The notes under the pieces are model-generated. The model was not told the origin of the DNA. It saw nothing but the letters and a program-made list of their open reading frames with translations, and searched no databases. The position numbers and the translations under genes were made by a program. Positions 5,231 to 35,007 of a stretch of DNA of 64,000 nucleotides are shown piece after piece; position 1 is the first letter of the stretch; each line of letters opens with the position of its first letter. The stretch lies in IMG/VR virus record IMGVR_UViG_3300022187_000028, positions 2,758 to 66,757 of that record; one strand, written 5' to 3'. Origin of the DNA: a virus.

Positions 5231-5239
5231 AATATCACC

Positions 5240-6545: not shown

Positions 6546-6642
6546 TTCCTTTCACCTCCCAACATTTTTTGCAGTATCCAAATGGTCTTAAATCTATAAC
6601 ATCACAAGTATAACATTGACCACAATATTTCAAATAAAACAC

Positions 6643-8259: not shown

Positions 8260-8268
8260 AATTTTCCC

Positions 8269-9702: not shown

Positions 9703-9713
9703 CCCTTCTTCTA

Positions 9714-10040
9714 CTATTCTTGTTCTTTTATGAAATCGACCTTTCTTTTAAAAGCAACATAAAAATTCGACAAAGCCTGTCTAGTATCAAAAATCTCATC
9801 GAATGGCCAATCGTCCATATAATCTTCCATCTTGGTAATTTGCCTAAGAATAAAAAATTCAATGTCTTCTTCGTAGTTTTCTTCTTCAAGTACTCTTTTA
9901 ATATCCGATAACCTACCTGCAAACGACTCCCAATGACCGCCATATTGATTATGTCCTTGTCGGATTTTGTTTTCTAAATCCTCGTATCTTTCTAATAGGG
10001 TTTCTTTGGTTTCAAACTTTAATATCCCTTTCCAACTCAT
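9714..10040 (-). CDS. MSW-tag acidic hypothetical protein
   Basis: MSWKGILKF preceded by GGTGATTGAC. Confidence 0.75.
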   Translation of the reverse strand: MSWKGILKFETKETLLERYEDLENKIRQGHNQYGGHWESFAGRLSDIKRVLEEENYEEDIEFFILRQITKMEDYMDDWPFDEIFDTRQALSNFYVAFKRKVDFIKEQE

Positions 10041-10045
10041 GTCAA

Positions 10046-10516
10046 TCACCGCCTAAATCTACCAAACATTCCTTTTTTGGGTTGTGGCTTTTGCACTTGT
10101 TGTTTTAATCTATTTAGGTAGTTTTGTGCGGCGTTTATATCAAAATAAGAATTAGCAAATTCTACGCTTTCCATTCCAGCGTTATCAACAATCCTCATAA
10201 TAGAATCTAATAGAGTTTCATGTTCTTTATCATAATTTCCTACTAATCCGAACTTTCCGGCCATTCCTCTAGCCTGTTGTTTATGGTTATTGTCTTGGTA
10301 TTCGTTCTTAAAAAGAATAGTTTTACCTAAAAATTTAATCCCAACATCATACCAATCAGTTTCTTTAGATTCCGGTTTTTGCATTAGTTTTGATTTGCGA
10401 GCCATATTCCAAACATATTCAAGGTCGCCACTGTTTGTATTAGTCCATCCTTGAGGACTATACCAAACCCCTACTTCTTGAGGTTGCGTGTTTTTCAATA
10501 TGTTTTTCCAACTCAT
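10046..10516 (-). CDS. MSW-tag hypothetical protein
   Basis: MSWKNILKN preceded by the same GGTGATTGAC. Confidence 0.75.
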   Translation of the reverse strand: MSWKNILKNTQPQEVGVWYSPQGWTNTNSGDLEYVWNMARKSKLMQKPESKETDWYDVGIKFLGKTILFKNEYQDNNHKQQARGMAGKFGLVGNYDKEHETLLDSIMRIVDNAGMESVEFANSYFDINAAQNYLNRLKQQVQKPQPKKGMFGRFRR

Positions 10517-10521
10517 GTCAA

Positions 10522-14804: not shown

Positions 14805-14853
14805 ATCGTTTCCCCGAATAAAGGCAATAGTCCACTCTATAATAAATGAACTG

Positions 14854-15015
14854 TCAATCTAACTTTGTCTGCCTTGTTGAAGTATCTTCCTTCGGCGGCG
14901 GAGTTTTCTTGGGTTCATTTCCCCATTCTTCTGCTGGAATTGTAGATACGGTGGCACCTTCTGTAAGTTTTTTGGGGAGTTTGGTTTGTCTTTTGAGAAC
15001 ACTTTTCCAACTCAT
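14854..15015 (-). CDS. MSW-tag 53 aa peptide, not in the ORF track
   Basis: Hand translation MSWKSVLKRQTKLPKK...TRQTKLD*; GGAG SD upstream. Confidence 0.7.
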   Translation of the reverse strand: MSWKSVLKRQTKLPKKLTEGATVSTIPAEEWGNEPKKTPPPKEDTSTRQTKLD

Positions 15016-15026
15016 TGTAATTTCTC

Positions 15027-15344
15027 CTACATCAATCTCTTTGTTTCAATCAAATGTAAATACTGTTCTCTTAATCCCATCTTTGAAGTCACAGCCTTTG
15101 CGAGTTTCTTCAAATTGTTTTGAAAACTAAAAAATTCAGGAGAGTAAAGGTCACTTAACTTATCCTTATCCTCCACCCTTTCGTAGTATTCATCAAATTT
15201 ATTCAATAGAGCCTCACCTGCTTGTTTTAATTTAGGGTCTTCATTGTAAGTCATAAAGAAAAGTAGTTCATGAACATGGGCGTGCAAAGGAGCATCCCCG
15301 TCCCTAACATACCAAGCACTTTTCAATATGGTTTTCCAACTCAT
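15027..15344 (-). CDS. MSW-tag hypothetical protein
   Basis: Starts MSWKTILKS. Confidence 0.75.
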   Translation of the reverse strand: MSWKTILKSAWYVRDGDAPLHAHVHELLFFMTYNEDPKLKQAGEALLNKFDEYYERVEDKDKLSDLYSPEFFSFQNNLKKLAKAVTSKMGLREQYLHLIETKRLM

Positions 15345-15994
15345 TGTAATCTCTCCTGCATCTTCTGTTTAATATCAAGCCAAATCTCAGGATTGTTCTG
15401 TGCTAGCACTTCTTGAACAACTTGCATCTGTGCAACAATAATTGTATCTTGTCGCTTGTGGACAAGTTTTCCTTTGAACTCCATCATGTATTTCAAAGAC
15501 TCACGAACTTCTCTAGCCAACTTCACTAGAGCGTCTAATTCCTTAGCATCTAAATCATCTCTAGATGCTATCTCGGTGATTTTATCATCGAGCAATTGAA
15601 TGTTATTTGATAGCATATCCACCTCATTCAAATCCTTCTTGGCAATAATAGCCGCCGCAGACTTTTGAACAACGGGCTGTAAATGGTGCTTAACATGGCG
15701 ATGGACTTGAGCCTTAGAAATTCCAAGCCCTACACTGACCTCCTCGGCTGTGATAAGACCCTCATGTAATTGTCTCTCGTATTCCGACCTCATTGGGTCT
15801 ACACAAATGGCACACTTTGGATTACTACTTTGCACATATTCTCCCATGTGATTCCTTTGATGCTGTGCGGAAGTACCGCTTCTCCAGTTCATCTTTTCAT
15901 CTAATTCATCGGGAGTAATAGTAAGAGATTCTAAATCGGCCTCCATAGAATCAACATCACTGTGTTGACAAAAGGCACAACTCTTTCTTCTCAT
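15341..15994 (-). CDS. Tandem CxxC-HTH-HxxxH Zn-finger protein with coiled-coil tail; candidate terminase small subunit
   Basis: Two repeats (CAFC...HQRNH, CAIC...HVKHH); helical C-terminus; upstream of terL. Confidence 0.55.
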   Translation of the reverse strand: MRRKSCAFCQHSDVDSMEADLESLTITPDELDEKMNWRSGTSAQHQRNHMGEYVQSSNPKCAICVDPMRSEYERQLHEGLITAEEVSVGLGISKAQVHRHVKHHLQPVVQKSAAAIIAKKDLNEVDMLSNNIQLLDDKITEIASRDDLDAKELDALVKLAREVRESLKYMMEFKGKLVHKRQDTIIVAQMQVVQEVLAQNNPEIWLDIKQKMQERLQ

Positions 15995-16003
15995 AATAAT
16001 TCC

Positions 16004-16384
16004 TCAAAGATATTTTAGTCCTTTCTGTATTCTTCTCAACATTTCAAGGCTATGTTTTTTGTCTAAATCATTTTCAACAACTTTATACCCATCATTGTAT
16101 GTGTATTCTGCTAAGGCAAAATCTCCAGCATCGTCTTTGAATTCTATAGTATAGTACCCTTCATCCATCTCAAAAATTTCTTCTTCTGTTAAATCTTCCT
16201 CGCCTTCATACATGTCTTGAAAATCAATTATGGTTTCAACTACTCCAGATTCAAAATAACCATCTTCATAATCTTCTCGCATTTTATCTTCACCGAATCT
16301 TTCTAATTCGGTGGCAATCATCTCTAGTAAATCTTCTTTTAAATCGCTTTCTAAATCGTTCTTTAATATTTTTTTCCAATTCAT
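16004..16384 (-). CDS. MSW-tag highly acidic protein
   Basis: MNWKKILKN start with GGTGA SD. Confidence 0.72.
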   Translation of the reverse strand: MNWKKILKNDLESDLKEDLLEMIATELERFGEDKMREDYEDGYFESGVVETIIDFQDMYEGEEDLTEEEIFEMDEGYYTIEFKDDAGDFALAEYTYNDGYKVVENDLDKKHSLEMLRRIQKGLKYL

Positions 16385-16394
16385 AATAATCACC

Positions 16395-17162
16395 TTATGG
16401 TAGTCCACCTAAAGTTTCCGAAACAATCAACATAGCAGTAGGGAATTTTCTTTTCAAATCACCTTCATTCCATGAAGTTTCCTTATTTGTTCTCAAGTAT
16501 TCTAGAAGTTTGTAAAACTCTTGAGCCGTTCCTATAGACGATTCATCATCTCTAGAATAAGACTGTTCAAAATTTTGACTAGCATAATCTTCTGCATCTT
16601 CTAGCCAGTTATCAACTTCTTTACTGTGACTGACTTTGGGAAGTTTCATCATTTTATCTTCGATGTGGCTAATCTCTTCCCATTTGTTAGTTTCTTTTAG
16701 ATAGCCAACTAGTTTATTATAGTCGGCTCCCTCAAACATTCTACTTATTTTTTCATGCTCAAAATCGGGCACTAACATTTGTTCTTCTATTGTTTGAATA
16801 TCTAAATCCCCTGTTATTTCGAGTACATCTTTCACAGACTCATCTCCTCTAAAACCTCCAAAATAATAACTTTCTTTTTTATTCCTTTTATTTCTAATAA
16901 AAACATCAACATTTGTAATTAAAAACATTTCATCTAGTTGCATACTTCCAATGGCAAATAATTCAAAATAGTCGGGGAACCCCATATCCAATTCTTTTAT
17001 CGAACTAGTGGCTGATTCATCATAAATAGGGAAATCCCCAAAAAAGTCATTTAGGGTAGGTTCAAGATAATCTCTTCCTATCAAGGAATATTTTATTTCC
17101 TGTTTAGATTTATCATCTAAATCGTTATAATCAACTCTTTTCAATATATGTTTCCAACTCAT
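16395..17162 (-). CDS. MSW-tag protein, paralog of 5240..5770 with an extra C-terminal domain
   Basis: Starts MSWKHILKR. Confidence 0.75.
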   Translation of the reverse strand: MSWKHILKRVDYNDLDDKSKQEIKYSLIGRDYLEPTLNDFFGDFPIYDESATSSIKELDMGFPDYFELFAIGSMQLDEMFLITNVDVFIRNKRNKKESYYFGGFRGDESVKDVLEITGDLDIQTIEEQMLVPDFEHEKISRMFEGADYNKLVGYLKETNKWEEISHIEDKMMKLPKVSHSKEVDNWLEDAEDYASQNFEQSYSRDDESSIGTAQEFYKLLEYLRTNKETSWNEGDLKRKFPTAMLIVSETLGGLP

Positions 17163-18133
17163 AGCAACACTTCCTTCCAACTTTTAATAACTGGACTAAC
17201 CTTTACTCTCATGTTCGACTTCATGTAATCTTTAATCAATTTACGAGTCTTAGCCGGAGTCAACTCGATTGTGAATTCAGTAATAGTTCCTCCCAAGTCG
17301 GGAACTTTCATGTATCTAGATAGCATCTTTTGTGCCTTACCTGTAGGTGGAACCTTGAATGATTTACCGGACAGTAGCCTCATAACTCTCCCTGTACTTA
17401 CTCCTTCTTCTGTTCTTGAAGTAGAAATAGCACGACCCAATCTCTTTTTAAAATCGGGAATGGTTTGGAGAGTTGCGGCAGGTTTAGAAGTTGTAATCGT
17501 AGCGATGTAGTTTTGGTCGTCAATATCTTCAATTGCTTTATTCAAAACATCAACCAATCCAACAGGAACTAAATCTCCTCCATAAAGGGCTTGGTAAATT
17601 GGCGGAGTAGCGGTATTTACTTTATCACTAACCCACCCATCTTTTTGTCTATCGGCAGTACCGTGTTTCTTAGCGTAGAATGTAGAAAGGTAGTGTCCAT
17701 AGACTTTCTCCATTTCTACACCTCTAGCGTAAGCCCCTGTCTGTCGGTTATACTTCTTAGGAATTGAGAATACGATATTTTGAGGATTCAAACTAGCATC
17801 GTCTTTTAGCCCTTCGAGGTCATTAACAATTGCTTCTAGAGTTTCAGCATCCTCTTCAAAGAAAATTCCGTTAGCCCTGTCAACTAACATCTTCCTAATT
17901 CTTCTAAGCATGGTATGTGCGCCGGAATTTCCATCATTAGGAGAACCCTTTCTAGGACTAGTGACATGGTTTTCAACTGCGTACAGTAAAGAACCTTTCT
18001 TCATGCCGGAGTTTGCACCTCTGCATTTTTTCTCCCAATCCTCAAAATCTTTCTTGAATTTGATAACTCCACCAACGGTTTCGATAACAGCGTCACCGAT
18101 GCTGGCAGTATTCTTATTCACATCTTTAGGCAT
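17159..18133 (-). CDS. Hypothetical protein ending in tag-like KSWKEVLL
   Basis: 324 aa ORF coupled at both ends. Confidence 0.7.
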   Translation of the reverse strand: MPKDVNKNTASIGDAVIETVGGVIKFKKDFEDWEKKCRGANSGMKKGSLLYAVENHVTSPRKGSPNDGNSGAHTMLRRIRKMLVDRANGIFFEEDAETLEAIVNDLEGLKDDASLNPQNIVFSIPKKYNRQTGAYARGVEMEKVYGHYLSTFYAKKHGTADRQKDGWVSDKVNTATPPIYQALYGGDLVPVGLVDVLNKAIEDIDDQNYIATITTSKPAATLQTIPDFKKRLGRAISTSRTEEGVSTGRVMRLLSGKSFKVPPTGKAQKMLSRYMKVPDLGGTITEFTIELTPAKTRKLIKDYMKSNMRVKVSPVIKSWKEVLL

Positions 18134-18879
18134 TACTCATCCTTCCTTTTCTTTCTTCTGCCATAAGTAGGTTTGAATAATTTAGCATGTGCTGGAGCAG
18201 TAGTAGTCACGGCTCCTGCCATTCTCTCAAGGTTTTCACTATTAACATCTTCCTTAGAATTCTCTTCCTTTTTACGCCTATATTCTCTAACTGGCCCTTT
18301 TTTTCTTTCAGCATACCTTTCTCTGCTTCGCTGATTTTTCCTTTCTCTATATTCGGGGTCATTCCGGTTTTCTCTTTTTCTTTCCCTTTCCAGCCTTTGC
18401 CGGTTTTCTCTATATTCGGGGTCATTAGCATATTTCCTTTTCAATGCTTCCCTGTTATACTGTAATATTCTTTTCCTATATTCGGGGTCATTAGCATATC
18501 TTTCTTTTCTTCTTTCATATGTTCTTTTATTAGTTTGTTCCAGATATTCTGAATTTATTTGCTCCAATTTTGTTATAAATGCTTCATATTGTTTTGATTC
18601 TGCTAAATCTATAAGTGCTTTAAATTGATTTTCAGTAATCGCTTCTGTTAATTTGTTATTAAGAGCATTAGTTAAACTTCTGGAAGGGGATAATTTTTTA
18701 GAATCTGCTATTGGAATACCAAATACCTCTACAAGAAACCTTTGGAAATCATTCGGTCTCTTTAAAATTTCCCAAGCCTTTTTCATAGCAGGGTCTTCGA
18801 GACTATTAGGAACCCACACGCCATATGTTGTAGCATCTCTACGACTCAGTTCTATTTTTAATATATCTTGCCAACTCAT
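18133..18879 (-). CDS. MSW-tag protein with three NDPEYR repeats
   Basis: Starts MSWQDILKI; Arg/Glu-rich repeats. Confidence 0.72.
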   Translation of the reverse strand: MSWQDILKIELSRRDATTYGVWVPNSLEDPAMKKAWEILKRPNDFQRFLVEVFGIPIADSKKLSPSRSLTNALNNKLTEAITENQFKALIDLAESKQYEAFITKLEQINSEYLEQTNKRTYERRKERYANDPEYRKRILQYNREALKRKYANDPEYRENRQRLERERKRENRNDPEYRERKNQRSRERYAERKKGPVREYRRKKEENSKEDVNSENLERMAGAVTTTAPAHAKLFKPTYGRRKKRKDE

Positions 18880-19142
18880 TTCTTTCGACCTCTTTGTGGA
18901 TTAGGAGGTAGTCTGCCTTTCTTTGGTTTCTTTCTTCTTTTGGTAGGTGTTTTATCAGTTTCTAAATCACGAATTAAGTTAGCATCTGCTTCTCTTCTTG
19001 CTATCTTTGCACCCATATCTCGACGAAATTCTTCCCGACGCTTTTCTTCCCTTTTTAGGTACTCATTACGCCTTTGAATTTTTTCTCTCTTGGCATCCAT
19101 CTTATCGGGGTCATATGCCTTTAGTGTATCTTTCCAACTCAT
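18876..19142 (-). CDS. MSW-tag basic protein
   Basis: Starts MSWKDTLKA. Confidence 0.72.
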   Translation of the reverse strand: MSWKDTLKAYDPDKMDAKREKIQRRNEYLKREEKRREEFRRDMGAKIARREADANLIRDLETDKTPTKRRKKPKKGRLPPNPQRGRKK

Positions 19143-19143
19143 T

Positions 19144-19602
19144 TCAAATCACCGGATACCTAAACATCGGCAATTTACTAAGTTCAGCATACATAGGCTT
19201 GTTCATTATATCCTGTACTTGAGAATAAGAAGTCACCTTATCCCCTAGCCTAGCCGCCACCCTTTCTACCTTTTTCCTAGACTCTTCATCTAGAGGATTC
19301 AATAATGTAATTCTAGGCTTACCTCTAGTATGCTTATTCCTCTCTTGTAATAACTTTCCATAAATTCCCTGTCCTGTGTGGTTGGGGCTAACATAGGAGT
19401 TTCCTACGAAAAAGAATGCTCCCATGTCCTTATAGGAAGTAAAGCCCAAAACTTCACCCTCATCATTTACTTCACTAACGAGGTTTAGTGGGCTTACCTT
19501 AGTTGGATAGCCTTTATCACTAGCAGTTCTAAAATTTGGCATATTCTCCGAAACCGCAGATTCAGTTAGAACCTTGACTTCCTTGAGAATATCTTGCCAC
19601 AT
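19144..19602 (-). CDS. MSW-tag GNAT-family acetyltransferase-like protein
   Basis: Starts MWQDILKE; YVSPNHTGQGIYGKLL matches GNAT motif A. Confidence 0.7.
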   Translation of the reverse strand: MWQDILKEVKVLTESAVSENMPNFRTASDKGYPTKVSPLNLVSEVNDEGEVLGFTSYKDMGAFFFVGNSYVSPNHTGQGIYGKLLQERNKHTRGKPRITLLNPLDEESRKKVERVAARLGDKVTSYSQVQDIMNKPMYAELSKLPMFRYPVI

Positions 19603-19603
19603 T

Positions 19604-19846
19604 TCAATCCCTCTTTAATGAATAGTAATAGGTAGGAGATAGATAGGGTTGTCTTTTGTTAATCCAATCGGCATTGTTCAAGAATTTCCTTAAAGTAGCG
19701 TCTTTGAATCTACCAATTCCTCTTTGTGCCAATGAAGACTTAATTCCTCCCAAAGCAATTTCATCTACATTCTCTAAAGTGTCAGCGACGGCTTTCACTA
19801 TGCTAGTGCGAATGCCCTCATGTGTTAGAGTGTCTTTCCAAGACAT
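19604..19846 (-). CDS. MSW-tag small protein, possible winged helix
   Basis: Starts MSWKDTL. Confidence 0.7.
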   Translation of the reverse strand: MSWKDTLTHEGIRTSIVKAVADTLENVDEIALGGIKSSLAQRGIGRFKDATLRKFLNNADWINKRQPYLSPTYYYSLKRD

Positions 19847-19848
19847 AA

Positions 19849-20616
19849 CTACAACCTCAAATTTCTTTCAATGATGGGAACCAATTCTTTTAATGATGGG
19901 CTAGATGCAATGACAGCATTTCTTTTGCTGATATGATATTGTCCACCATGCGATTTAACTTTCAAGAAATCCTTACCATAGTCTAATTTTAATTCGGGAT
20001 TACCCTTTGCCCGACTAGATGTATGGCTAGAATAAATCTCTCCTCCTAGTTTTTCTTGGAAGTGTTCTAGGAATGCTCTAGGTCCGAAGAATTTCAAAAT
20101 AGATTTTCTTAGCATAGGAAACTTATCTCGGTTTCTTTTAGAAAGTTGAGTATCGACATAGTACCCTGCCGTACTTATGGAATATATTTCCCTATCAAGT
20201 TCTCTAAGAGCCGGAACATAATTCACCTTGTTTAAATATTTATCAATTCTCAAAATAATAGAGGACATTTCATTTTTCATCTCTTCTGTCACTCCTTCGT
20301 AATTTTCCATCATCTCTTGAGCGGCTTCGGGATATTGTTCCTTTATATCTTCAGCATCTTGTTTTTGCTGTTCTCGAAACTGTGCTTCTCCAACAAGAGA
20401 TTCTAGAGCCTTAAGTTCTTTGAGTACTGCCTCTTTATTTTCCCTCGTTCTTTTTCGGTCTGCCTTACCTTTTTCTCCACCTGTTTCTTGACTGCGCTGA
20501 CTTGTTCTTTGTTCAGCAGTTCTAGTATCTACTGCTGGCCGTGACATTGGCCTTGGTGCTTCCCTCTTATGAGGTGTCCAATTCTTATCTCTCTTGAGGA
20601 TAGTTCTCCAAGACAT
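19849..20616 (-). CDS. MSW-tag protein, probably two domains
   Basis: Starts MSWRTILKR; internal RKSILKF. Confidence 0.72.
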   Translation of the reverse strand: MSWRTILKRDKNWTPHKREAPRPMSRPAVDTRTAEQRTSQRSQETGGEKGKADRKRTRENKEAVLKELKALESLVGEAQFREQQKQDAEDIKEQYPEAAQEMMENYEGVTEEMKNEMSSIILRIDKYLNKVNYVPALRELDREIYSISTAGYYVDTQLSKRNRDKFPMLRKSILKFFGPRAFLEHFQEKLGGEIYSSHTSSRAKGNPELKLDYGKDFLKVKSHGGQYHISKRNAVIASSPSLKELVPIIERNLRL

Positions 20617-20618
20617 AA

Positions 20619-20846
20619 TCAAACCTCCGCATAAAACGATTCGCTGTTTGGCATATTAACCTGCCTAGCAATAACTTTCAAAGAGCCGCCCATCATTTGT
20701 AGGGCGTTCTTGAATAGGGAAATTTCCCTATCTACAATTTCCTTTTCTTCTTGTGATAGTTTGGAAGTATTGACAGAATTCATAGTCTTCTCCATTTCTC
20801 TTAGGAGGGACAGTACTCTCTTTACTTCTGCTTCCATAGTAATCAC
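20619..20846 (-). CDS. Small helical hypothetical protein
   Basis: 75 aa in operon context. Confidence 0.6.
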   Translation of the reverse strand: MITMEAEVKRVLSLLREMEKTMNSVNTSKLSQEEKEIVDREISLFKNALQMMGGSLKVIARQVNMPNSESFYAEV

Positions 20847-20852
20847 CTAATT

Positions 20853-21140
20853 TTAAACAGGTTCTGCTTCACTCATAATTAAACGCAAAGCATACAAAGG
20901 CCCAATCCTTTTCTTACCGGCGAGTTCCATTGCGCTTTGTAGTTGTTCTTCACTGGCGTTAAATGCTTGAATTTTTTCTACTGCCATCTCAATTACATCT
21001 TGTGTAATGTCGTATTCATGGAATAGTGTTGCCGTGATAAAATCCATTGGTCCCATCGTCATTAGACCTTTCTTTATTTCAGCCTCTTTCAAGAGTTTCT
21101 TTGCTTCACGAATATTTCTAAAATCTTTGCTGTTCATCAA
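20853..21140 (-). CDS. Hypothetical protein
   Basis: 95 aa in operon context. Confidence 0.6.
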   Translation of the reverse strand: MMNSKDFRNIREAKKLLKEAEIKKGLMTMGPMDFITATLFHEYDITQDVIEMAVEKIQAFNASEEQLQSAMELAGKKRIGPLYALRLIMSEAEPV

Positions 21141-21143
21141 TAA

Positions 21144-21476
21144 TCACCGTAATTGTTCTTCTGCTTCAATCCATTCTTCGCCCAAGTCATACAACTCATC
21201 CAAAGCATCTTCGCTTATTTTCAATAACTTACGACCCAGTTCGGGCATTTCCTTTAGAGAATTTTCTAACTCTCTACCATAGTAGGCATAATCCGATACT
21301 GCCTTAATGAAACCTTCAATGTTCTTTTTATCTACTTTCATAGCCATCTCTAAACTATCTTTAGAACCCCTTCTCTCTTCAGCCTCTCTCTTCATCCGAG
21401 GACTGACATTCATAAAACTCGTCATGTCTTCGGGGTCTTCGCCAAGTATCTTTCTTAATTCATCTTTCCAAGTCAT
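21144..21476 (-). CDS. MSW-tag protein, first gene of the head-module operon
   Basis: Starts MTWKDELRK with GGAG SD. Confidence 0.7.
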   Translation of the reverse strand: MTWKDELRKILGEDPEDMTSFMNVSPRMKREAEERRGSKDSLEMAMKVDKKNIEGFIKAVSDYAYYGRELENSLKEMPELGRKLLKISEDALDELYDLGEEWIEAEEQLR

Positions 21477-21599
21477 GCCAATTTCTCCAAAAAAAATTTC
21501 TCAAAATTTTTGGCGGAATTTGTTCGGGACTACGCAAAATTTTATTTTAATAGTAAATGTATTCCCAGAATAAGAATAATACTATTTTTGTAAATGCTA

Positions 21600-21890
21600 T
21601 TTGGGACATTAGTAATAGCCCCGCAGTACTGTACTAATTAGGTAAGCCTTAGCACAATACTATAGTGTCTTGGTAGTTTTCGCCCCCCTTCTGCCTATTC
21701 ATGGCTAAGAGTATCGTACTAATAGTAATTTCGCTACCGTTTAATGCGCTAAACTTTGCATATTTAGTAATGTGCCAACTACTAAAAACGCAGTACTGCA
21801 AGCCTGTTAGTAGTGCGCCGAATAGTACTCTATTTAACAGGAATTCTAATAGTAATAGTGGAAAAACAGCACTATTACTGTTAAAATAAT
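21600..21890. repeat. Non-coding region rich in short TAGTA/TACTA/AGTACT motifs
   Basis: Repeated tagtaatag, gcagtactg, actatta words. Confidence 0.5.
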
Positions 21891-21910
21891 AAAAAAAATT
21901 TGAAACAAAG

Positions 21911-21950
21911 CCATATGGTTGTGTAAAAATAGTGTTATACAACCATATGG
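21911..21950. promoter_or_regulatory. Inverted pair of CCATATGGTTGT boxes
   Basis: ccatatggttgt (21911) and acaaccatatgg (ends 21950); same core as the four sites at 23265-24939. Confidence 0.65.
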
Positions 21951-21969
21951 TATGCTTTGACTACCCCGC

Positions 21970-22007
21970 AAAGGAAGAGAGGGGCCGTTAAGCCCCCCTC
22001 TATCTTT
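21970..22007 (-). terminator. GC-rich hairpin closing the 22041-23215 operon
   Basis: agaggggc...gcccccctct imperfect stem after the last stop codon. Confidence 0.55.
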
Positions 22008-22040
22008 CTTAATACTCCTCTATGTGGAGTTGTTTCCGGC

Positions 22041-22253
22041 TCAGTCCCATGCTGAAGCCAATTGGTCTGCCTTTAGTGCCTCAAGTTCGTTGTGGCAATC
22101 ATCGCAAATGTATTGCTCCGAATCGTGATAATCATCAAGTTCGCAGATAGCACACTTCTCCGGCACACTCAACCAATCTTCGCAAGTCTTACAAATGTCC
22201 TTGCCGTCGTTATCGTCAAATTCACCGTTATGTTCAACGCAAATTTTAGTCAT
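22041..22253 (-). CDS. Small Cys-rich Zn-binding protein
   Basis: CVEH, CKTC, CAIC, CDDC. Confidence 0.65.
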   Translation of the reverse strand: MTKICVEHNGEFDDNDGKDICKTCEDWLSVPEKCAICELDDYHDSEQYICDDCHNELEALKADQLASAWD

Positions 22254-22369
22254 TCTTGTTCACCTCTAATGATGCCAAGGTAAAGGTCCACATCGAACTC
22301 AAGGACATTCGATATTGGATTCAGTAAGGCTCGTTGTGTTGCTTCTTCAATCATTTCTTCTTCGTTCAT
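22250..22369 (-). CDS. 39 aa hypothetical protein
   Basis: MNEEEMIEEATQRALL..., ATGA-coupled on both sides. Confidence 0.6.
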   Translation of the reverse strand: MNEEEMIEEATQRALLNPISNVLEFDVDLYLGIIRGEQE

Positions 22370-22491
22370 TCTTCTTCCTCCATTACGGTACAAAACTCTT
22401 GATGGGCATAAAGTAAATCCCAATCAATGTCTTCTTGCCATTCAACAAGTGGTGTTTGGTAACCACAAATACATTCAGCACTAAATCTCAT
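22366..22491 (-). CDS. 41 aa Zn-finger-like peptide
   Basis: MRFSAECICG...HQEFC...EEEE*. Confidence 0.6.
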   Translation of the reverse strand: MRFSAECICGYQTPLVEWQEDIDWDLLYAHQEFCTVMEEEE

Positions 22492-22500
22492 TCTTCTCCC

Positions 22501-22854
22501 TCATATGCTGGCACTAAAATCATTCAAATGAATGGGAGTACCATCCCACTGTTGAAAGGTATCGTTGTTCACTAAATACCATAGCCAATTCTTTTGCACT
22601 AACCTAACGCTAGTATTGGAACGCCAAAGAACACCATTAAGGCGTTCCTTTGTTGTGTGGCTAGTCCAACCACCTGCACTAATCATAATGTTGTTAGTGC
22701 ATCCTGTAGGCTTCCAAGCGATTCGGTTTCCGTGAAGTACTAGTTCAGTTATCACCAAATGTCCCGAAGGAACTTGTCTAACTTCTGTGTTTCCTATCTT
22801 CATAGTGCGGTCTGTAAAAAAGGCTCTAGTGCTTACTTCTGTTATCTTTCTCAT
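22501..22854 (-). CDS. Viral early-type hypothetical protein
   Basis: LHGNRIA...GWTSHTTKERLN motif resembles small phage early proteins. Confidence 0.65.
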   Translation of the reverse strand: MRKITEVSTRAFFTDRTMKIGNTEVRQVPSGHLVITELVLHGNRIAWKPTGCTNNIMISAGGWTSHTTKERLNGVLWRSNTSVRLVQKNWLWYLVNNDTFQQWDGTPIHLNDFSASI

Positions 22855-23093
22855 TCATCTTCCTCCATAGTGAAAATGTCTGTATAGCCGTTAGCCAAAA
22901 ACCAACCTGTGATTAATTCCAACTTATCGCTAGAACAAGTCCAAAGAAAATAGAGTGGACTATCTTGAAAGTGCTTCCACTTAGCGTCAAGATAATCTTC
23001 TGTAGCGTCGGGGAATAAAAGCATCTTGAAGGAAAATTTGTTTAGTCTTCCTAGATATTTTAGTTCGTCTGCAAATTCTCTTAGTGTAGTCAT
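22851..23093 (-). CDS. Hypothetical protein
   Basis: 80 aa, coupled. Confidence 0.65.
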   Translation of the reverse strand: MTTLREFADELKYLGRLNKFSFKMLLFPDATEDYLDAKWKHFQDSPLYFLWTCSSDKLELITGWFLANGYTDIFTMEEDE

Positions 23094-23215
23094 TCTCCTC
23101 CCTCCCTCGCTAATAGAATATGAATATGAATCAAACGCTTGTTAATCTGCATAATCTCCCTAGTCTGTTCTTTTAGTTCCATCATTAATTCTATAAATTG
23201 CTTTTCTGTTAGCAT
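23090..23215 (-). CDS. 41 aa leaderless first gene of cassette operon
   Basis: MLTEKQFIELMMELKEQ...; ATG 27 nt downstream of the CCCT-TATAAAA box. Confidence 0.6.
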   Translation of the reverse strand: MLTEKQFIELMMELKEQTREIMQINKRLIHIHILLAREGGE

Positions 23216-23231
23216 AACCTAGGCCCTGCTC

Positions 23232-23272
23232 TTTTTTTATAAGGGTTGTAGAGCAAAGTCACAACCATATGG
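23232..23272 (-). promoter_or_regulatory. Cassette promoter: CCATATGG box, CTTTG, CCCT, TATA
   Basis: Minus strand CCATATGGTTGTGACTTTGCTCTACAACCCTTATAAAA. Confidence 0.7.
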
Positions 23273-23297
23273 CGGTGTTCTTTTGTGGTGTGCCTCG

Positions 23298-23334
23298 CCC
23301 CACCCTATCGGGGATAGGAACCGATAGAGTGGGG
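23298..23334 (-). terminator. 14-bp hairpin after gene 23351..23734
   Basis: CCCCACTCTATCGG / CCGATAGGGTGGGG, one G-U pair on the minus strand. Confidence 0.65.
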
Positions 23335-23350
23335 GTCATAAGCGGGGATT

Positions 23351-23734
23351 TCAAAGGTCTTTTAGCCTGTTGTGGTACATGTAAAGCAACATTCTAATGT
23401 CCGATTCCTTCCTTGACACGGTGTAGTCTTTACCATCATCAAAACCATACTCATTGAGGGTGACGGTTCGGGTAGCCATGTCATAAGTGTCATTCCTTGC
23501 GATTGCGTGAGTTTCCATAAGGCGGCGGCTTTTCTGCTCGTATTCTTCTTGAGTGAAATCCATTCCTTCAACCATTTCAATCCATGCTTGGTAAGGCCCC
23601 ATCATAGCGGGTCCAACTGGACCAACTCGGTTCAATACATCTCTCATCCATCCCAATACGGTTGGGATTTCGCTGGTAAGGTTGGGAACCTTTACTTCAA
23701 TTTCATGCCATGTTATTCCTGCTGGTATTTGCAT
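23351..23734 (-). CDS. Hypothetical protein, leaderless single-gene cassette
   Basis: Probable start MQIPAG at 23734, 27 nt downstream of the promoter CCCT. Confidence 0.68.
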   Translation of the reverse strand: MQIPAGITWHEIEVKVPNLTSEIPTVLGWMRDVLNRVGPVGPAMMGPYQAWIEMVEGMDFTQEEYEQKSRRLMETHAIARNDTYDMATRTVTLNEYGFDDGKDYTVSRKESDIRMLLYMYHNRLKDL

Positions 23735-23753
23735 ACCAAAACCACCACACTGC

Positions 23754-23799
23754 ACTAATTAGGGTTATTCCAAAGAACACAACCATATGGTATGCTTTG
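23754..23799 (-). promoter_or_regulatory. Cassette promoter
   Basis: Minus strand CAAAGCATACCATATGGTTGTGTTCTTTGGAATAACCCTAATTAG. Confidence 0.7.
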
Positions 23800-23842
23800 C
23801 AGACCCCCATAAGGGGGCCGCTCAAGACCTTATTTTGCCTAA

Positions 23843-24343
23843 TCAGGCATCCTCCTGTAGAGTAGTACCTGTTCTGTAGGCTTGCATACCTACAATACTA
23901 CCGTCCCAAGAGCCTTTGTTGTAGGCTTCGAGATGCCATCGCTTGGATTGGCTACTCAAAGTCTTTCGTAGAGTTTCGGGAGTGTAAGCAATAATGCCTT
24001 CCTTGTTTTTCTTTCGTCGTAGTACATCGTAGATTGGATGAGTTGGGTCTTCGGGAACAATCATGGCCACCGCAGTATCAATGAATTGATATGCGTCCAC
24101 TAGTTCATCGGGAACTGTAGGAATGGAACCTTGTGAAAGATATTGTCCATAGCCAAATCGCTTCGCTTGTTTTCGTGCATAGGTGTAGTACATCGTGAGT
24201 TCTTTGTCAGTTGCTTCTGTGTCAACAGCGTCTTCAATTGCGTTAATCAATCGGTTCTGTATCTTTGCGTCGGGGTTAGGGTTGTGTTCTAAGTGCGTAG
24301 ACAACCGGTTTAGTTTGTTTTCGTTTTCTTCTGCTTTGGTCAT
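23843..24343 (-). CDS. Hypothetical protein, single-gene cassette flanked by an inverted repeat
   Basis: 166 aa; GGAGATGA SD-like site. Confidence 0.72.
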   Translation of the reverse strand: MTKAEENENKLNRLSTHLEHNPNPDAKIQNRLINAIEDAVDTEATDKELTMYYTYARKQAKRFGYGQYLSQGSIPTVPDELVDAYQFIDTAVAMIVPEDPTHPIYDVLRRKKNKEGIIAYTPETLRKTLSSQSKRWHLEAYNKGSWDGSIVGMQAYRTGTTLQEDA

Positions 24344-24391
24344 AATATCATCTCCATTAAGGTCTTGAGCGACACCTAAACCCCCACCTTA

Positions 24392-24438
24392 TTTTTATTA
24401 GGGTCTTTCCAAAGTTAATACCATATGGTTGTACTTTG
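24392..24438 (-). promoter_or_regulatory. Cassette promoter
   Basis: Minus strand ACAACCATATGGTATTAACTTTGGAAAGACCCTAATAAAAA. Confidence 0.7.
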
Positions 24439-24440
24439 CT

Positions 24441-24617
24441 AGACCCTAGAGGGATAGGAGGGGAGGCCGACTCGGATACAAGGCACTAAGGTCTATTCGC
24501 TAGGTTGAAAAACATCATGTCTAGAATTGTGTCAGTCAACAGTATCTTTTTACTTCAGTCCGTACGCTCGTCTGCGCCATTCCCCCCCTATCCATTGTAA
24601 GGTCTGCCCTAGGGTCT
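24441..24617 (-). ncRNA. Candidate structured non-coding RNA or long 3' UTR element
   Basis: Ends pair (agaccctag/ctagggtct and ggataggagggga/tcccccccctatcc); no convincing ORF. Confidence 0.4.
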
Positions 24618-24619
24618 TT

Positions 24620-24727
24620 TTAAGAAACCTTGTCGGCAGGGAGTGTTTTAGCAGTAGTACTTTTCTTGGGTGGTAGTTCTACTACTAGGAAATCCCATAC
24701 ATCAGCGTATGGGGGTGTTCTTGTCAT
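24620..24727 (-). CDS. 35 aa peptide
   Basis: MTRTPPYADVWDFLVVELPPKK..., ATGA-coupled to the upstream ORF. Confidence 0.45.
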   Translation of the reverse strand: MTRTPPYADVWDFLVVELPPKKSTTAKTLPADKVS

Positions 24728-24882
24728 GCTCGGTCATGGGAAGGAGGGGTAGTGGGGCCACCATCCCCACTACTCCCATCCAACTCAATCCGTTTAGGAA
24801 TAGGATTTATTGAAATTGTTTCTAGGATAGCGTCTAGAGTCTTAGTCATTGCCTTCATTGCTGTTATGTCGTATCGTGTCAT
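24724..24882 (-). CDS. 52 aa near-leaderless peptide
   Basis: MTRYDITAMKAM...; ATG 29 nt downstream of the promoter CCCT. Confidence 0.55.
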   Translation of the reverse strand: MTRYDITAMKAMTKTLDAILETISINPIPKRIELDGSSGDGGPTTPPSHDRA

Positions 24883-24902
24883 ACACCCTAGCACCTCTAT
24901 TA

Positions 24903-24943
24903 TTTTCATAAGGGTATCTCCAAAGTTAATACCATATGGTTGT
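24903..24943 (-). promoter_or_regulatory. Cassette promoter
   Basis: Minus strand ACAACCATATGGTATTAACTTTGGAGATACCCTTATGAAAA, nearly identical to the 24392 promoter. Confidence 0.7.
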
Positions 24944-25020
24944 GAATTGTTCTTTCGTGGTGTAAAACCCCGACCCCCCAAGGGGGGCCGAGGAGTAGAG
25001 CGGCGGGCTTCCGGAGTGGC

Positions 25021-25530
25021 TCACTCGTCTTGAGTGGCCTCCTCGTTGTCGTCTTCAGCAGGGCTGTAGTCGGTGTTTTTGTCGTAGTCGGCAATCCATT
25101 TGCCGCACACGAAATCGACAAGGGCGGTCATTGAAAGGTGGGCATCGCCACCCTTCGTTTTGCGGATTGGGTTGAAATTTGTAGCACCTTCGCCGGTAGC
25201 AATGAAATGCTTTGCTTTGGATTCAACCATGTTGTCGTAGTGTTGTCGGTTGGGGTCGTTGGAGCGCATGCGCTGAACCATCAAGTGGTCGGCGTTGTAT
25301 CGCTTCAAGAGAGACTTCAAGTGGGACGCATCGGCCTTACGGTAAGCGTCTTGTTGTGTGTCGTCTTTGAGTCCTTCAAGGGCGTCGGTGATTTGTCCTT
25401 GTGCTCGTTCTGTTAGAGAAGTCCAATCTTCCGATGGACTCTCAATGGCTTCTTCAAGTGGTGCGAAGCGGTTAATTTCCGCTTGTGCGTCCCACTGTTT
25501 CTTCTCTGTGTCTGTTGCTGTTTTTGGCAT
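25021..25530 (-). CDS. Acidic hypothetical protein, single-gene cassette flanked by an inverted repeat
   Basis: 169 aa; visibly higher GC than neighbouring genes. Confidence 0.75.
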   Translation of the reverse strand: MPKTATDTEKKQWDAQAEINRFAPLEEAIESPSEDWTSLTERAQGQITDALEGLKDDTQQDAYRKADASHLKSLLKRYNADHLMVQRMRSNDPNRQHYDNMVESKAKHFIATGEGATNFNPIRKTKGGDAHLSMTALVDFVCGKWIADYDKNTDYSPAEDDNEEATQDE

Positions 25531-25589
25531 GTTTTTTCACTTCCTTTGGTCGGTTGCTCTACTCCTCGACTGCTTTAACGGCTCCATTT

Positions 25590-25612
25590 CGGTTATAGGG
25601 CCTCTAACAAAG
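25590..25612 (-). promoter_or_regulatory. Cassette promoter lacking the CCATATGG box
   Basis: Minus strand CTTTGTTAGAGGCCCTATAAC. Confidence 0.55.
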
Positions 25613-25819
25613 CACACGACCTAATTTAAACACGCCTCAACCCTATTTTTTAGGTAGTGATAACACTAGTAAAGTAATTATTGATTTAATACTAGAGTAC
25701 TTCAATTGGCCTTATATTACATATACTATAGATGATAAGTTTGAACTTTCCAGCGTGATTCCAACTTGAATTAGAATCGAAAAGTGGCCTGAAAGGGTTA
25801 AAAACCCTGTTTTTATACA

Positions 25820-26060
25820 TTATTCTAATATTCTAATTATTCTAATATCTATTCTATCTATGAGAGTGTGAATCTATCTATCACACTCTCTATAAGTATC
25901 TAGGGGTTAGAAACTTAGAAAGTTGGAAACTTGGGCGCAGTATAGCGTTTGGGATTTGGAAACGAAAATTAGAATTAGAATAATGGGATTTCGAGGAGGT
26001 CGAATGCTGTTGACGGATTTGAAGGGTCGAATGCTATGTGTGAAATGCTATTTTCAAAAC
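25820..26060. repeat. Candidate replication origin or regulatory hub
   Basis: TTCTAAT x3, a 10-bp hairpin (25862-25890), TTAGAA x4 and GGTCGAATGCT x2 at the strand-switch point. Confidence 0.45.
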
Positions 26061-26268
26061 ACTAATTTCATTTTAGTATTTTCAAATATAAACAAAGTCA
26101 CATAGGACTGTTTGACGGCCCCTTTTAAATAAATCACAGGTGTTAGAGCATCTCGATGAGATAACCGGCGGGGCCTTCTGCTTGAGTAGGGGGCCTAACG
26201 ACAACGATTGATTCTTCAATCATTACTCGCAAGGGCCTCGCCACACAAAATATAAATGAGGAATACAA

Positions 26269-26436
26269 ATGAAAATAATTGAATTTATGAGAAAGCACTA
26301 CAAAGGATATAACGGAATGAGTAAAGACATTGGTTGGTACATGTGTGTACCAATGAATGTCATTGCCGAGCAATTGGGAATGACAATGGATGAACTTGGA
26401 GAACAGACTTGGTACTGGAAAGGTGAGGAAGAATGA
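26269..26436 (+). CDS. 55 aa hypothetical protein
   Basis: MKIIEFMRKHY...GEEE*, GAGG SD, coupled to next gene. Confidence 0.6.
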   Translation: MKIIEFMRKHYKGYNGMSKDIGWYMCVPMNVIAEQLGMTMDELGEQTWYWKGEEE

Positions 26437-26624
26437 AGAGAGTCACTAAGCATATCAAAACTCTCGCAAGCCTAATCATCGAAGAAGGAATGAACCGTGA
26501 AACTCCTTATCTTCTCGAAGTGGTCAACTTTGAGTGGGAAATGTACGCATACCGACCCTTTACTAGTGAAGACATTTATGCGGCTAGAGCATGGGTCTAC
26601 AAAACATTGGGGATGGTTTCTTGA
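26433..26624 (+). CDS. Hypothetical protein
   Basis: 63 aa, coupled. Confidence 0.6.
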   Translation: MKRVTKHIKTLASLIIEEGMNRETPYLLEVVNFEWEMYAYRPFTSEDIYAARAWVYKTLGMVS

Positions 26625-32802: not shown

Positions 32803-34175
32803 TTACGATGAGAAGAATAAATTTTGAAATATATACACAAGAGAATACGAAAACCCTAAGATGCAGTGTGCATTTTGAAAAGGATGGAAGAGAAGTTGTG
32901 TTCAGAGAACATATTTGCCCCAACAGACACCGAATAGATTCTAGGGTATTGTATTCAGCAGACCCTATTTTAGAAAAAACTTCCGAGGCATTTAATGAAA
33001 TCCTAAAGGGGGCATATAATAGACATCAATACTATAGAATGAATATTGTCGATGAGAACGGCACTACACACACGGAATATCCGGAAAGCGATAATTTGTT
33101 TTTCGTAATTACTTTTACTTCCAAATGCGATGCTGGCTTGGATAGTGAGGCTTCTAGGGAAGTAGAAGTCGTTATTTCTAAGAAGGGCAGTTCCTATTCA
33201 ATTAACGGCATGGCCACCCCTAGAAAACACATCGCCCCTATTCTCGCTAGAATTCTTTTGGATATTGATGCTAAAACAAAAAGAAAAGAGGTTCCGCTAT
33301 CTAGGAAAGAGTTGAGGGATATTGTGGCTAGTTCTATTCTAGTTCCGGAAGACATTAGATATGTTCTTACTACTAGACTACCTTTTCAATATATGAAAGA
33401 GGGTCGAACAATCAATGTTAGATTACAAGTAATGCAAATTTCCGATGACGACTATGCAATAGAAATCAGTTCAAATGTTTGGGGTAAAATATCCCAAAAA
33501 GACCTAATGACTATGATTGGTTTTTATCGTCATGGTAAGCGAGTAGGGAACTGGAAGTTCCTTAGTCCTAAAACCCTCTTTACTCGTTTAATGAATAAGG
33601 AACCTACGGAAGCAGAAACTAAATTGATGATGGCCTTCTTAGAACAGAATCGCTCGGAGAAGTTAGTGCAAGAAAGAGCCATGACGCTTCTTGATGATTT
33701 ATTGGTTCAATATCCGGACAGGGTAAAAAGAAAGGATAGTGAAGAAGCAATACGAATCATTGTTTCCGGACAAACCTCCGATTGGCTACTCTGTGGCTCT
33801 AAGTCTAATCTCAAAAGAGAAAGCATAGGAGTTCAAGCAGTTAGTACTCAAATGCTTAGAGTTAAGAGTGAAGATACCGGAGATATAATGTACTGGGGTC
33901 ATAGTATTTGCATAAACACTGGAGGAAAGAACCCCTCCCTTGGCGACCAATTTGCCTCAAGGATTCTCTCCCTATTGAATGACAGAATGACTATGAGTAG
34001 AGTCAGCACTTTAGGAAGTGAAGTGACGGCATCTAAACCTAGATTGGTTATGAGTTCTAAGATATTCACTCGTACTAAGATTGATGTAAATAATCCATTC
34101 AGTTCTAAATTTGAATTAATGTGTAATAAAGGTGAAAAAAATGAAATGCTTAGAATGCCAATCATTGAAGAATAA
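32799..34175 (+). CDS. Hypothetical protein within the Ubl/E1/JAB region
   Basis: 458 aa; C-terminal HSICI...GDQFASRILSLLND. Confidence 0.65.
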   Translation: MITMRRINFEIYTQENTKTLRCSVHFEKDGREVVFREHICPNRHRIDSRVLYSADPILEKTSEAFNEILKGAYNRHQYYRMNIVDENGTTHTEYPESDNLFFVITFTSKCDAGLDSEASREVEVVISKKGSSYSINGMATPRKHIAPILARILLDIDAKTKRKEVPLSRKELRDIVASSILVPEDIRYVLTTRLPFQYMKEGRTINVRLQVMQISDDDYAIEISSNVWGKISQKDLMTMIGFYRHGKRVGNWKFLSPKTLFTRLMNKEPTEAETKLMMAFLEQNRSEKLVQERAMTLLDDLLVQYPDRVKRKDSEEAIRIIVSGQTSDWLLCGSKSNLKRESIGVQAVSTQMLRVKSEDTGDIMYWGHSICINTGGKNPSLGDQFASRILSLLNDRMTMSRVSTLGSEVTASKPRLVMSSKIFTRTKIDVNNPFSSKFELMCNKGEKNEMLRMPIIEE

Positions 34176-35007
34176 ATTCGATGAAGTCTTAGGAGAACTA
34201 ATTTGTGAAGAGTGTGGTTTAGTTCTAGTGACTGAACCCTTTGAGCAAGGGACTTATCTACAGGACAGCCAAGGCTCAATTATTAGAGAGCGTTGGTCTT
34301 CCAATTTACATGAAATGGGATTACAGACGATAAAACCTAAATCCCTGTCCTTCGCTCAAATTGAAAATAAGGCAGTGTATAAAGGAGTTTCAATGTGTAG
34401 ACTACTGATGGCATCACTAAAGATACCAAGAACTTCTACAATCTTTACTACTGTAGAGGAATTGTATTTGATGCTCTACAGAAAGCACACATTTTCTACT
34501 GCCCCTCTTGAAAATAGAGCGGCGGCACTTGTCTACTACTGTTTGAAAAATGAGTCACTTCCCTTCACACTGAAAGAAGTTTGTGCTGAATACGAATGCA
34601 ACAAGAAGTCTGTGTTTAGGTTGGCTAGGAAGATAGCAAAGGAAGAGAACAATACCGGAGTTTTTCTAATAAAGGAATGTAGACCATTCGCTGAAAAATA
34701 TGCTATGTTATTAGCAGACGAACTAGAACACTACCCTTCTTACTTAGGAAAGGTTTCCCTGCTATCAATTCACTTTGATAATATTCTCTCGAAATCTAAC
34801 GAGAATATCAAGCCAAGTACTCCAGCCGCATATTGTTCTATTGTGGCTACTATGGAGAACATGAACATAACGAACAAGAAAATAGAATCGGTTAGTGGTA
34901 TTGGGTATGATGCCATTGGTCGAGAAGTCAAGAGGCTTTTGAAAATAATTAATACCAATAAAAAACAAATAAAAGGAAGAGGAATAGAATGCCTAGAAAA
35001 ATATTGA
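34141..35007 (+). CDS. tfb: Transcription factor IIB (TFB)-like protein
   Basis: N-terminal Zn ribbon CLEC...GELICEECGLV and two cyclin-like repeats (AAALVYYC...TLKEV). Confidence 0.82.
   Translation: MKCLECQSLKNKFDEVLGELICEECGLVLVTEPFEQGTYLQDSQGSIIRERWSSNLHEMGLQTIKPKSLSFAQIENKAVYKGVSMCRLLMASLKIPRTSTIFTTVEELYLMLYRKHTFSTAPLENRAAALVYYCLKNESLPFTLKEVCAEYECNKKSVFRLARKIAKEENNTGVFLIKECRPFAEKYAMLLADELEHYPSYLGKVSLLSIHFDNILSKSNENIKPSTPAAYCSIVATMENMNITNKKIESVSGIGYDAIGREVKRLLKIINTNKKQIKGRGIECLEKY

Follow-up and report, generated by a model that had tools for sequence, protein, structure and literature searches.

Introduction

Pairing between the two ends of a messenger RNA (mRNA) is known in bacteria, and its covariation across hok homologs is documented. 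The tac/fbi stem of hok joins the 5′ end of the mRNA to its distant 3′ end and stabilizes the full-length message (PMC9841398), the full-length AapA1 transcript folds so that it is not translated before its 3′ end has been processed (PMC5416894), and a 14-base-pair (bp) pairing between the 5′ and 3′ untranslated regions (UTRs) of the Bacillus subtilis hbs mRNA modulates RNase cleavage (PMC5737220). Post-transcriptional control in archaea is poorly known, and direct pairing between archaeal 5′ and 3′ UTRs has been an open question since 2009 (PMC2636863). We present here a sequence-defined case, cassettes A and B of a magrovirus-like tailed archaeal virus, in which a helix, starting from the predicted first transcribed base, joins the two UTRs in a panhandle and is kept by compensatory change across deeply diverged paralogs. 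The window analyzed, meaning the whole stretch of DNA, is 64,000 nucleotides (nt) long and spans positions 2,758 to 66,757 of IMG/VR record IMGVR_UViG_3300022187_000028 (66,757 bases). The carriers are abundant uncultivated viruses of marine Poseidoniales.

As in hok and AapA1, the 5′ end of the A and B messages pairs with a distant 3′ end. In contrast to those systems, the open reading frames (ORFs) of A and B encode soluble-looking proteins of 166-197 amino acids (aa), their ribosome-binding sites are open, there is no evident antisense RNA, and the genes are viral, with an archaeal host. Archaeal ribosomal RNA and small RNA processing stems carry bulge-helix-bulge motifs or C/D box ends; their flanks pair, their ends meet, and ligases can circularize them. 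The A and B stems are instead continuous, with at most a 1-nt bulge, and enclose a translated ORF. In plastic regions of phage genomes (morons; the T4 promoter-early stem-loops), small independent units are shuffled among related viruses at conserved regulatory words. We know of no pairing of mRNA ends in phage promoter-gene-terminator cassettes, and the shuffling in the present region, unlike that of the phage cassettes, concerns the leaderless neighbors of A and B and not A and B themselves.

The likeness to hbs lies in long-range 5′/3′ UTR pairing of similar length in a short, highly expressed mRNA (PMC5737220). The hbs pairing, however, lies within a structured leader, overlaps an RNase Y site, does not start at +1 and concerns a single bacterial gene, whereas the A/B feature is kept by a whole viral gene family and combines an invariant terminal U.G wobble with an abutting hairpin. 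In haloarchaea both UTRs are needed together (PMC2636863); the abstract of that work does not report direct UTR pairing, which is explicit and covarying in A and B. The main texts of the magrovirus papers, taken without their supplements, contain no mention of promoter, hairpin or inverted repeat, and those of PMC11706807 and PMC10160649 also none of UTR or stem-loop. For mRNA panhandles of archaeal viruses, nothing relevant was present among the top 10 of 282 full-text matches. A preliminary description of this DNA, made from its letters alone, had known of no description of the arrangement in archaeal viruses; that agrees with the literature searches, with the qualification that 5′/3′ UTR pairing itself is known from bacteria. 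The A/B panhandle is the first such case in an archaeal virus that we can find, and it is marked by its start at +1, its invariant terminal wobble and its conservation in a paralog family.

The panhandle of cassettes A and B

Cassettes A and B are encoded on the minus strand, in a row of small transcription units that occupies region 21900-25650. Their features are as follows.

25571..25612, minus strand: promoter of cassette A, read from the sequence: CTTTG, 7 nt, CCCTAT (TATA-like), 24 nt to the G of GTCG
25556..25570, minus strand: 5′ arm of A (GTCGAGGAGTAGAGC), starting at the predicted +1
25021..25530, minus strand: gene A, 169 aa, no known family, with Shine-Dalgarno-like AAGGAAGTGA upstream
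24987..25001, minus strand: 3′ arm of A (GCTCTACTCCTCGGC), beginning 19 nt past the stop codon
24972..24986, minus strand: hairpin P2 of A, C5, loop, G5 plus UC, abutting the 3′ arm; TTTT run 6 nt further
24374..24433, minus strand: promoter of cassette B, ACAACCATATGGT, CTTTGG, ACCCTAAT, 23 nt to the G of GTCG (repeat family D6)
24358..24373, minus strand: 5′ arm of B (GTCGCTCAAGACCTTA), with GGAG 2 nt later and ATG 14 nt later
23843..24343, minus strand: gene B, 166 aa, no known family, remote paralog of A
23817..23832, minus strand: 3′ arm of B (TAAGGTCTTGAGCGGC), beginning 10 nt past the stop codon
23802..23816, minus strand: hairpin P2 of B, C4-5, TTAT, G5 plus UC; it can extend to GGCCCCC/GGGGGTC

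Each cassette has complementary segments in the 5′ UTR and 3′ UTR of one predicted transcription unit. In A, 25570-25556 pairs with 25001-24987 (15 pairs including one G.U), and in B, 24373-24358 pairs with 23832-23817 (16 pairs including one G.U). Both 5′ arms start GTCG and both 3′ arms end CGGC, which places a U.G wobble at pair 2 of either helix; read as antisense, the same position is an A/C mismatch and the helix is broken after one pair. Hairpins of the form C4-8/loop/G4-8 occur only twice in the whole window, each directly after a panhandle 3′ arm. When the predicted full-length transcripts were folded, the panhandle was present in both the minimum-energy and the centroid structures of A and B, with fold z-scores of -3.4 and -5.4 (100 shuffles). 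In the minimum-energy fold of B, the last GG of the 3′ arm pairs with GU past the hairpin, G1 and U2 are unpaired, and a G.U closes the hairpin; the extended B hairpin (GGCCCCC/GGGGGTC) competes with the first two panhandle pairs. Rfam, searched at E values up to 1, had no match in 21000-26600.

The arm positions and letters given in the preliminary description are all correct. Its statements that both stems start GUCG, differ inside and carry a U-G at position 2 that works on the sense strand only are borne out, as is the folding of the full transcripts into a panhandle, which it had proposed as a check. The C/G hairpin ending in UC that it placed after the 3′ arms holds for both cassettes of the window and not for distant members of family B, where the hairpin is displaced or weak.

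The B 3′ arm and hairpin region (23812-23828, plus strand) is also complementary to the end of the gene A coding sequence (25027-25043; 17 pairs, two of them G.U), which is probably a chance match.

Conservation and covariation

Loci with flanks for relatives of A and B were collected by scanning viral and metagenome contigs and were given labels (L002, L007, etc.). DNA of the phage collection had no match, and neither the genome contigs scanned with the B alignment nor the viral contigs scanned with the single A protein yielded one. For family A, 13 cassettes including that of the window came from a GTCG...CGGC scan and nine more homologs from tblastn; these nine, which have stems of 14-19 bp, end in TTGGC on the 3′ side and for that reason had escaped the earlier scan. 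All evaluable A cassettes, 22 of 22, carry a stem, the window included (L021, L029 and L046 are cut at the contig end). B stems were sought by pairing the 110 nt upstream of the ATG with the first 110 nt past the stop codon, and one of 13-18 bp was found in 25 of 25 related loci with enough flank; outside this count are L038 and L039, with a short flank or no start, and L047, which is cut. Over all evaluable relatives of both families, the stems span 13-19 bp.

There are 10 distinct arm pairs in family A and 9 in family B, and the arm interiors are wholly unlike between lineages (in A, for example, GTCGAGGAGTAGAGC, GTCGCAGTGCAACAGC and GTCGAGTGAGAGAGAAGCC). The A arms of the window and L002 differ by a single clean double change from G-C to A-U, and pair 4 is G-C, G.U or A-U across lineages. 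The formal count was restricted to the alignment of distant B members, A7 (11 of 26 B cassettes, 9 of them distinct); elsewhere MAFFT alignments of whole cassettes misregistered the arms, and the other variants were counted by an end-anchored script. In the 11 distant B cassettes, all 162 of 162 cells were paired and 6 of 18 pairs differed in both partners; pairing or covariation as high as this was seen in 0 of 500 shuffles, and controls with the arms slid were 31-44% paired. When the end-anchored script was applied to 16 variants, each of the 16 cognate arm combinations formed 13-19 contiguous pairs. Non-cognate combinations gave at most 9 pairs in 221 of 240 cases, the 19 higher ones being close relatives. 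G.U pairs account for 22 of the 257 paired cells of the sense strand, and on the antisense strand 16 of 16 helices break after one pair. Eight window-type B cassettes have arms, 10-nt post-stop spacer and hairpin that are 100% identical, with third codon positions at 78%.

Apart from, at most, a single 1-nt bulge behind pair 4 or a single 1x1 mismatch, the helices run without a break. Near-invariant throughout are a U.G wobble at one of the first three pairs and GGC[C/U]CC at and after the end of the 3′ arm. The 3′ arm ends YGGC and in most members joins a G/C hairpin directly; the abutting hairpin is present in family A and in window-type B, and within family A it lengthens, with compensating changes, in L031, L007 and L034. 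The 3′ arm starts 10-38 nt past the stop codon, the 5′ arm lies 14-26 nt before the ATG, and GGAG follows the 5′ arm by 2-12 nt. A more distant virus (L017) has two cassettes of similar size with stems of 12-13 bp and a GCU/GGC terminal clamp, again with U.G; in both, a UCCC...GGGG helix encloses an inner hairpin. Their proteins are weakly similar to the C-terminal part of B (probability 34-38%). As for the U run that directly follows the hairpin of an intrinsic terminator, cassette A has TTTT at 6 nt, cassette B has none, and the L017 cassettes have U-rich tracts immediately after it.

These data strongly support a helix that is under purifying selection, acts on the sense strand at the level of RNA, and joins the 5′ UTR to the 3′ UTR. 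The covarying stem of the preliminary description is confirmed, with compensatory changes among 19 arm variants in two paralogous families; the homologs thus show the very changes whose lack it had named as evidence against its proposal. Of the panhandle architecture that it inferred, the structural part stands, on covariation, sense-strand specificity and pairing of 5′ UTR with 3′ UTR; its functional part is weighed below.

Chance expectation

Inverted repeats of at least 14 Watson-Crick pairs at a spacing of 150-3000 nt number 28 in the window (both strands), many of them from a palindromic word, CCATATGG. In 20 composition-preserving shuffles of the whole window, the same class had a mean of 5.6 and a range of 0-10. 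When 110-nt windows one gene-length apart were compared, 7 of 2402 window pairs reached at least 13 Watson-Crick pairs, 5 of them in the A/B region and 2, overlapping, elsewhere. Stem length is unremarkable; placement and conservation are decisive. The placement is beyond chance, with the 5′ arm at the predicted +1, the 3′ arm abutting a hairpin, and both arms in the UTRs of a single ORF.

Promoters and leaderless neighbors

Most units in 21900-25650 are preceded by a promoter word that reads CCATATGGT, 4-7 nt, CTTTG, 4-8 nt, ACCCTWAT (repeat family D6). An exact-pattern scan located the word in 15 stretches of viral contigs (27-98 kilobases; loci L003-L017 and the window were noted). In many instances the ATG lies 23-28 nt past ACCCTWAT without a leader, a spacing that fits an archaeal TATA box driving leaderless mRNAs. 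Because the ATG of the leaderless neighbors sits at this distance, the G of GTCG is the expected +1, and we infer that A and B start there. The palindromic CCATATGG in the promoter word looks like a candidate binding site for a dimeric factor. Two leaderless cassettes adjoin A and B.

24724..24882, minus strand: leaderless cassette D, 52 aa, between A and B; same promoter type, no 5′/3′ stem
23351..23734, minus strand: leaderless cassette C, downstream of B; local 14-bp hairpin as 3′ end, no panhandle; absent from L002

The leaderless neighbors have no 5′/3′ stem or just 10-11 bp matches at scattered distances, as expected from the earlier statement that leaderless cassettes lack the structure. 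Ten other promoter instances have weak stems of 10-12 Watson-Crick pairs, with distances scattered over 269-2098 nt; these are regarded as chance or as self-complementarity of the promoter word. A leaderless gene of L012, on the minus strand from position 3123, has 11 nt at codons 4-7 that could pair with a stretch lying 594 nt further downstream, either by chance or as a leaderless variant of the panhandle idea.

Cassette C (23351-23793) occurs here and, judged by the promoter and leader after B, in L021 and L023; it is replaced by a different cassette in L026 and L027 and is missing in L002, L022, L024 and L030. The indel boundaries of leaderless cassettes lie in the promoter word CCATATGGTTGTG, away from the arms. 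Since the boundary of cassette C falls in this word, the leaderless cassettes are shuffled at promoters.

A stretch of about 280 nt after the 52-aa leaderless ORF (24440-24723, minus strand) is non-coding, partly conserved in L002 and L007 and without a match in Rfam. At the equivalent position of L017 (about 9095-9372, minus strand) there is a promoter-driven unit without an ORF that starts GTCGGCGG and ends in a hairpin and U run, possibly a small RNA.

Proteins and transcription

Profile comparison of the A and B families with hhalign (probability 89.5%, E 2e-6, 115 columns) shows A and B to be remote paralogs, and the panhandle design is accordingly old and inherited, not invented twice. 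Profile searches returned 26 homologs of A and 23 of B, none with a Pfam domain or an informative name. Pfam and PHROGs had nothing for A or B except a single weak BicD match far under its cut-off. Structure models were confident, with a predicted local distance difference test (pLDDT) score of 74 for A and 85 for B, and represent helical proteins. At E <= 0.001, Foldseek found 0 matches in the Protein Data Bank (PDB), nothing usable came from the ESM Atlas, and the best hit of a wide structure comparison with VIA-align (Z 7.4 over 65 residues) was a generic helical bundle and uninformative.

Two marine metatranscriptome runs contain contigs over gene A (25003-25398; 25017-25280; and, from a relative, 25359-25546) and over the small 52-aa ORF (24722-24857). 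Neither joints nor pile-ups of ends were seen in them. This RNA evidence consists of contigs, which are uninformative on transcript ends, circles or absence.

Possible roles of the panhandle

We favor, at a probability of roughly 0.5, the reading that the panhandle mainly protects the mRNA ends from exonucleases. A and B would be separate promoter-gene-hairpin units, each giving a leadered monocistronic mRNA from an archaeal-type promoter. The first 13-19 nt of the mRNA would pair with the 3′ UTR and close the message into a panhandle, in which the triphosphate 5′ end would be buried in the helix and, in most members, stacked on the 3′ hairpin, so that neither end would be single-stranded. Both ends would be shielded from 5′-to-3′ and 3′-to-5′ exonucleases, with long-lived and well-translated early messages as the effect. 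The helix could persist during translation, because the arms sit just outside the reach of the ribosome at start and stop: by its footprint, positions at least 10 nt past the stop codon and 14-26 nt before the ATG lie just outside it. The transcript ends, the stabilizing effect and the nucleases in this account are all inferred.

In the leaderless neighbors the 5′ end is the start codon itself and must stay accessible for initiation; they have a local 3′ hairpin only, and the panhandle is found only in leadered cassettes. The design also suggests that an exposed 5′ leader is a disadvantage in these hosts, which the leaderless neighbors escape in other ways. The panhandle would also mark likely transcript starts and ends in the early regions of magroviruses.

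Several observations weigh against end protection. Inverted repeats of panhandle length are common in themselves (a mean of 5.6 per shuffled window), promoter spacing alone places the +1, and the RNA-library contigs (contigs from Logan, not reads) end short of both arms. In distant B members the hairpin is displaced by 11-30 nt or weak, so that stacking of the helices is not universal. The strict GU start and the GGC[C/U]CC after the 3′ arm exceed the needs of simple end protection, and this strict terminal conservation hints at recognition by a protein.

An alternative that we hold possible though unlikely is that the panhandle chiefly controls translation, either by closed-loop re-initiation, with the stop codon beside the ribosome-binding site, or by a hok-like lock until the 3′ end is trimmed. 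The geometry suits it, since the stop codon (10-38 nt ahead of the 3′ arm) and GGAG (2-12 nt behind the 5′ arm) both sit at the base of the helix. Precedents exist: haloarchaeal 5′ and 3′ UTRs act jointly in translational control (PMC2636863), the 5′/3′ UTR stem of hok tac/fbi stabilizes a closed, untranslated mRNA (PMC9841398), and AapA1 is similar (PMC5416894). In A and B, however, the arms do not cover the Shine-Dalgarno sequence and start codon, which are unpaired in the B centroid fold, and the products are helical proteins of 166-197 aa and not small toxins. Neither an antisense RNA nor a second conformation was found, in a search of limited depth. Two related candidates were rejected. 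A type I toxin mRNA does not agree with ORFs of 166-197 aa or with a Shine-Dalgarno sequence and AUG that are open in the centroid fold, and masking of the Shine-Dalgarno sequence by CUCC-like words of the 3′ UTR is true of some distant B members only.

It is improbable that the terminal helix serves instead as a recognition module, for a double-stranded RNA-specific nuclease that excises units from read-through transcripts, for an RNA ligase that closes the nick-like junction of 5′ end and 3′ hairpin into a circle, or for autoregulation by the A and B proteins. The main hint is the invariant GU start, U.G wobble and GGC[C/U]CC after the 3′ arm: the terminal clamp and the C-rich motif that follows are conserved while the rest of the helix changes freely. 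In most members no nucleotide separates the 3′ arm from the hairpin, and the 5′ end resembles a nick in a continuous helix. The hairpins mostly lack following U runs, which makes read-through conceivable, and archaea are described as circularizing RNAs whose ends meet. Processing, on the other hand, would need neither a promoter for each unit nor a helix that starts at +1. No RNA ligase or RNase III family was found among the 30 window proteins scanned against Pfam, many of which have no family at all, and the RNA contigs contain no joints, although such data could hardly show them. The helices also contain no bulge-helix-bulge motif, which consists of two 3-nt bulges with a 4-bp helix between them; such a substrate was rejected for stems that are continuous with at most one 1-nt bulge.

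We regard as doubtful the narrower proposal that the terminal module is more than a clamp and serves as a site for ligation into circular translatable mRNAs, or as one where the ends of the A and B messages are bound by their own proteins (or by a host factor). Either function, ligation or protein binding, would make the module a viral RNA element of a new kind; under the binding proposal, archaeal viruses would possess in this paralog family an RNA-guided system of autoregulation.

A DNA-level role of the arms, whether they are terminal inverted repeats of a mobile cassette, bound an invertible segment or are binding sites that loop promoter to terminator, is very improbable: although inverted repeats do flank one gene in a region that is a string of cassettes varying among relatives, the pair-2 T/G mismatch is invariant and 21 more G.U pairs all lie on the sense strand with no A/C counterpart, the arm sequences vary by cassette and lineage in a way that a sequence-specific DNA protein could not follow, the flanks have no direct repeat, A and B are in all relatives while the variable cassettes are bounded by the promoter word CCATATGGTTGTG, no strand-changing joints occur in two DNA runs (contigs only), and no transposase or invertase is nearby. 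A DNA transposon or miniature inverted-repeat transposable element was rejected on the missing target-site duplication, a presence/absence pattern not bounded by the arms, and the asymmetry of the strands. The preliminary description had named terminal inverted repeats with target-site duplications as a finding that would speak against its proposal; there are no duplications, and cassettes are gained and lost at the promoter word.

Gene content of the window

Protein family scans identified a portal and a large terminase among the genes of the window. The replication genes are a split family-B DNA polymerase, an ATP-dependent ligase, a UvrD-like helicase and replication factor C, and the window also encodes a thermosome-type chaperonin, a TFIIB zinc ribbon protein, an ERCC4/XPF nuclease and three transfer RNAs (tRNAs). 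Within the phage collection, the polymerase has its best matches, of about 25% identity, in tailed viruses of haloarchaea.

49321-51045 and 51596-52522, plus strand: family-B DNA polymerase (PolB) in two ORFs about 550 nt apart, split as in some magroviruses

Philosof et al. 2017 (PMC5434244) report for magroviruses thermosome genes together with split polymerases and tRNA-Leu/Arg, and a magrovirus-type set of portal, large terminase, PolB, replication factor C, ATP ligase and thermosome-type chaperonin is present here, which fits that account. Judged by gene content, the record is a magrovirus-like tailed archaeal virus, and the archaeal virus assumed in the preliminary description is borne out.

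The TFIIB-type zinc ribbon lies in a 291-aa protein (34132-35007, plus strand; Pfam E 1e-6, slightly under the curated cut-off) that may be a viral transcription factor B reading virus-specific promoters. At least 10 genes in 4070-21486 (minus strand) share nearly identical first 24-33 nt (ATGAGTTGGAA...) and encode proteins that start MSW or MTW (repeat families D1-D4); they are either a paralog family or genes with a common 5′ signal. Stretch 21600-21960, at the switch of gene orientation, is non-coding and conserved in L002 and L007; with two inverted copies of ACAACCATATGG and many TACTAWT-like words, it may be a replication origin. A G+C-rich stretch (26100-26255, plus strand) upstream of the first rightward gene (ATG 26269) has no match in Rfam; it contains several local hairpins and a core that L002 and L007 share, and it could represent a leader or a small RNA.

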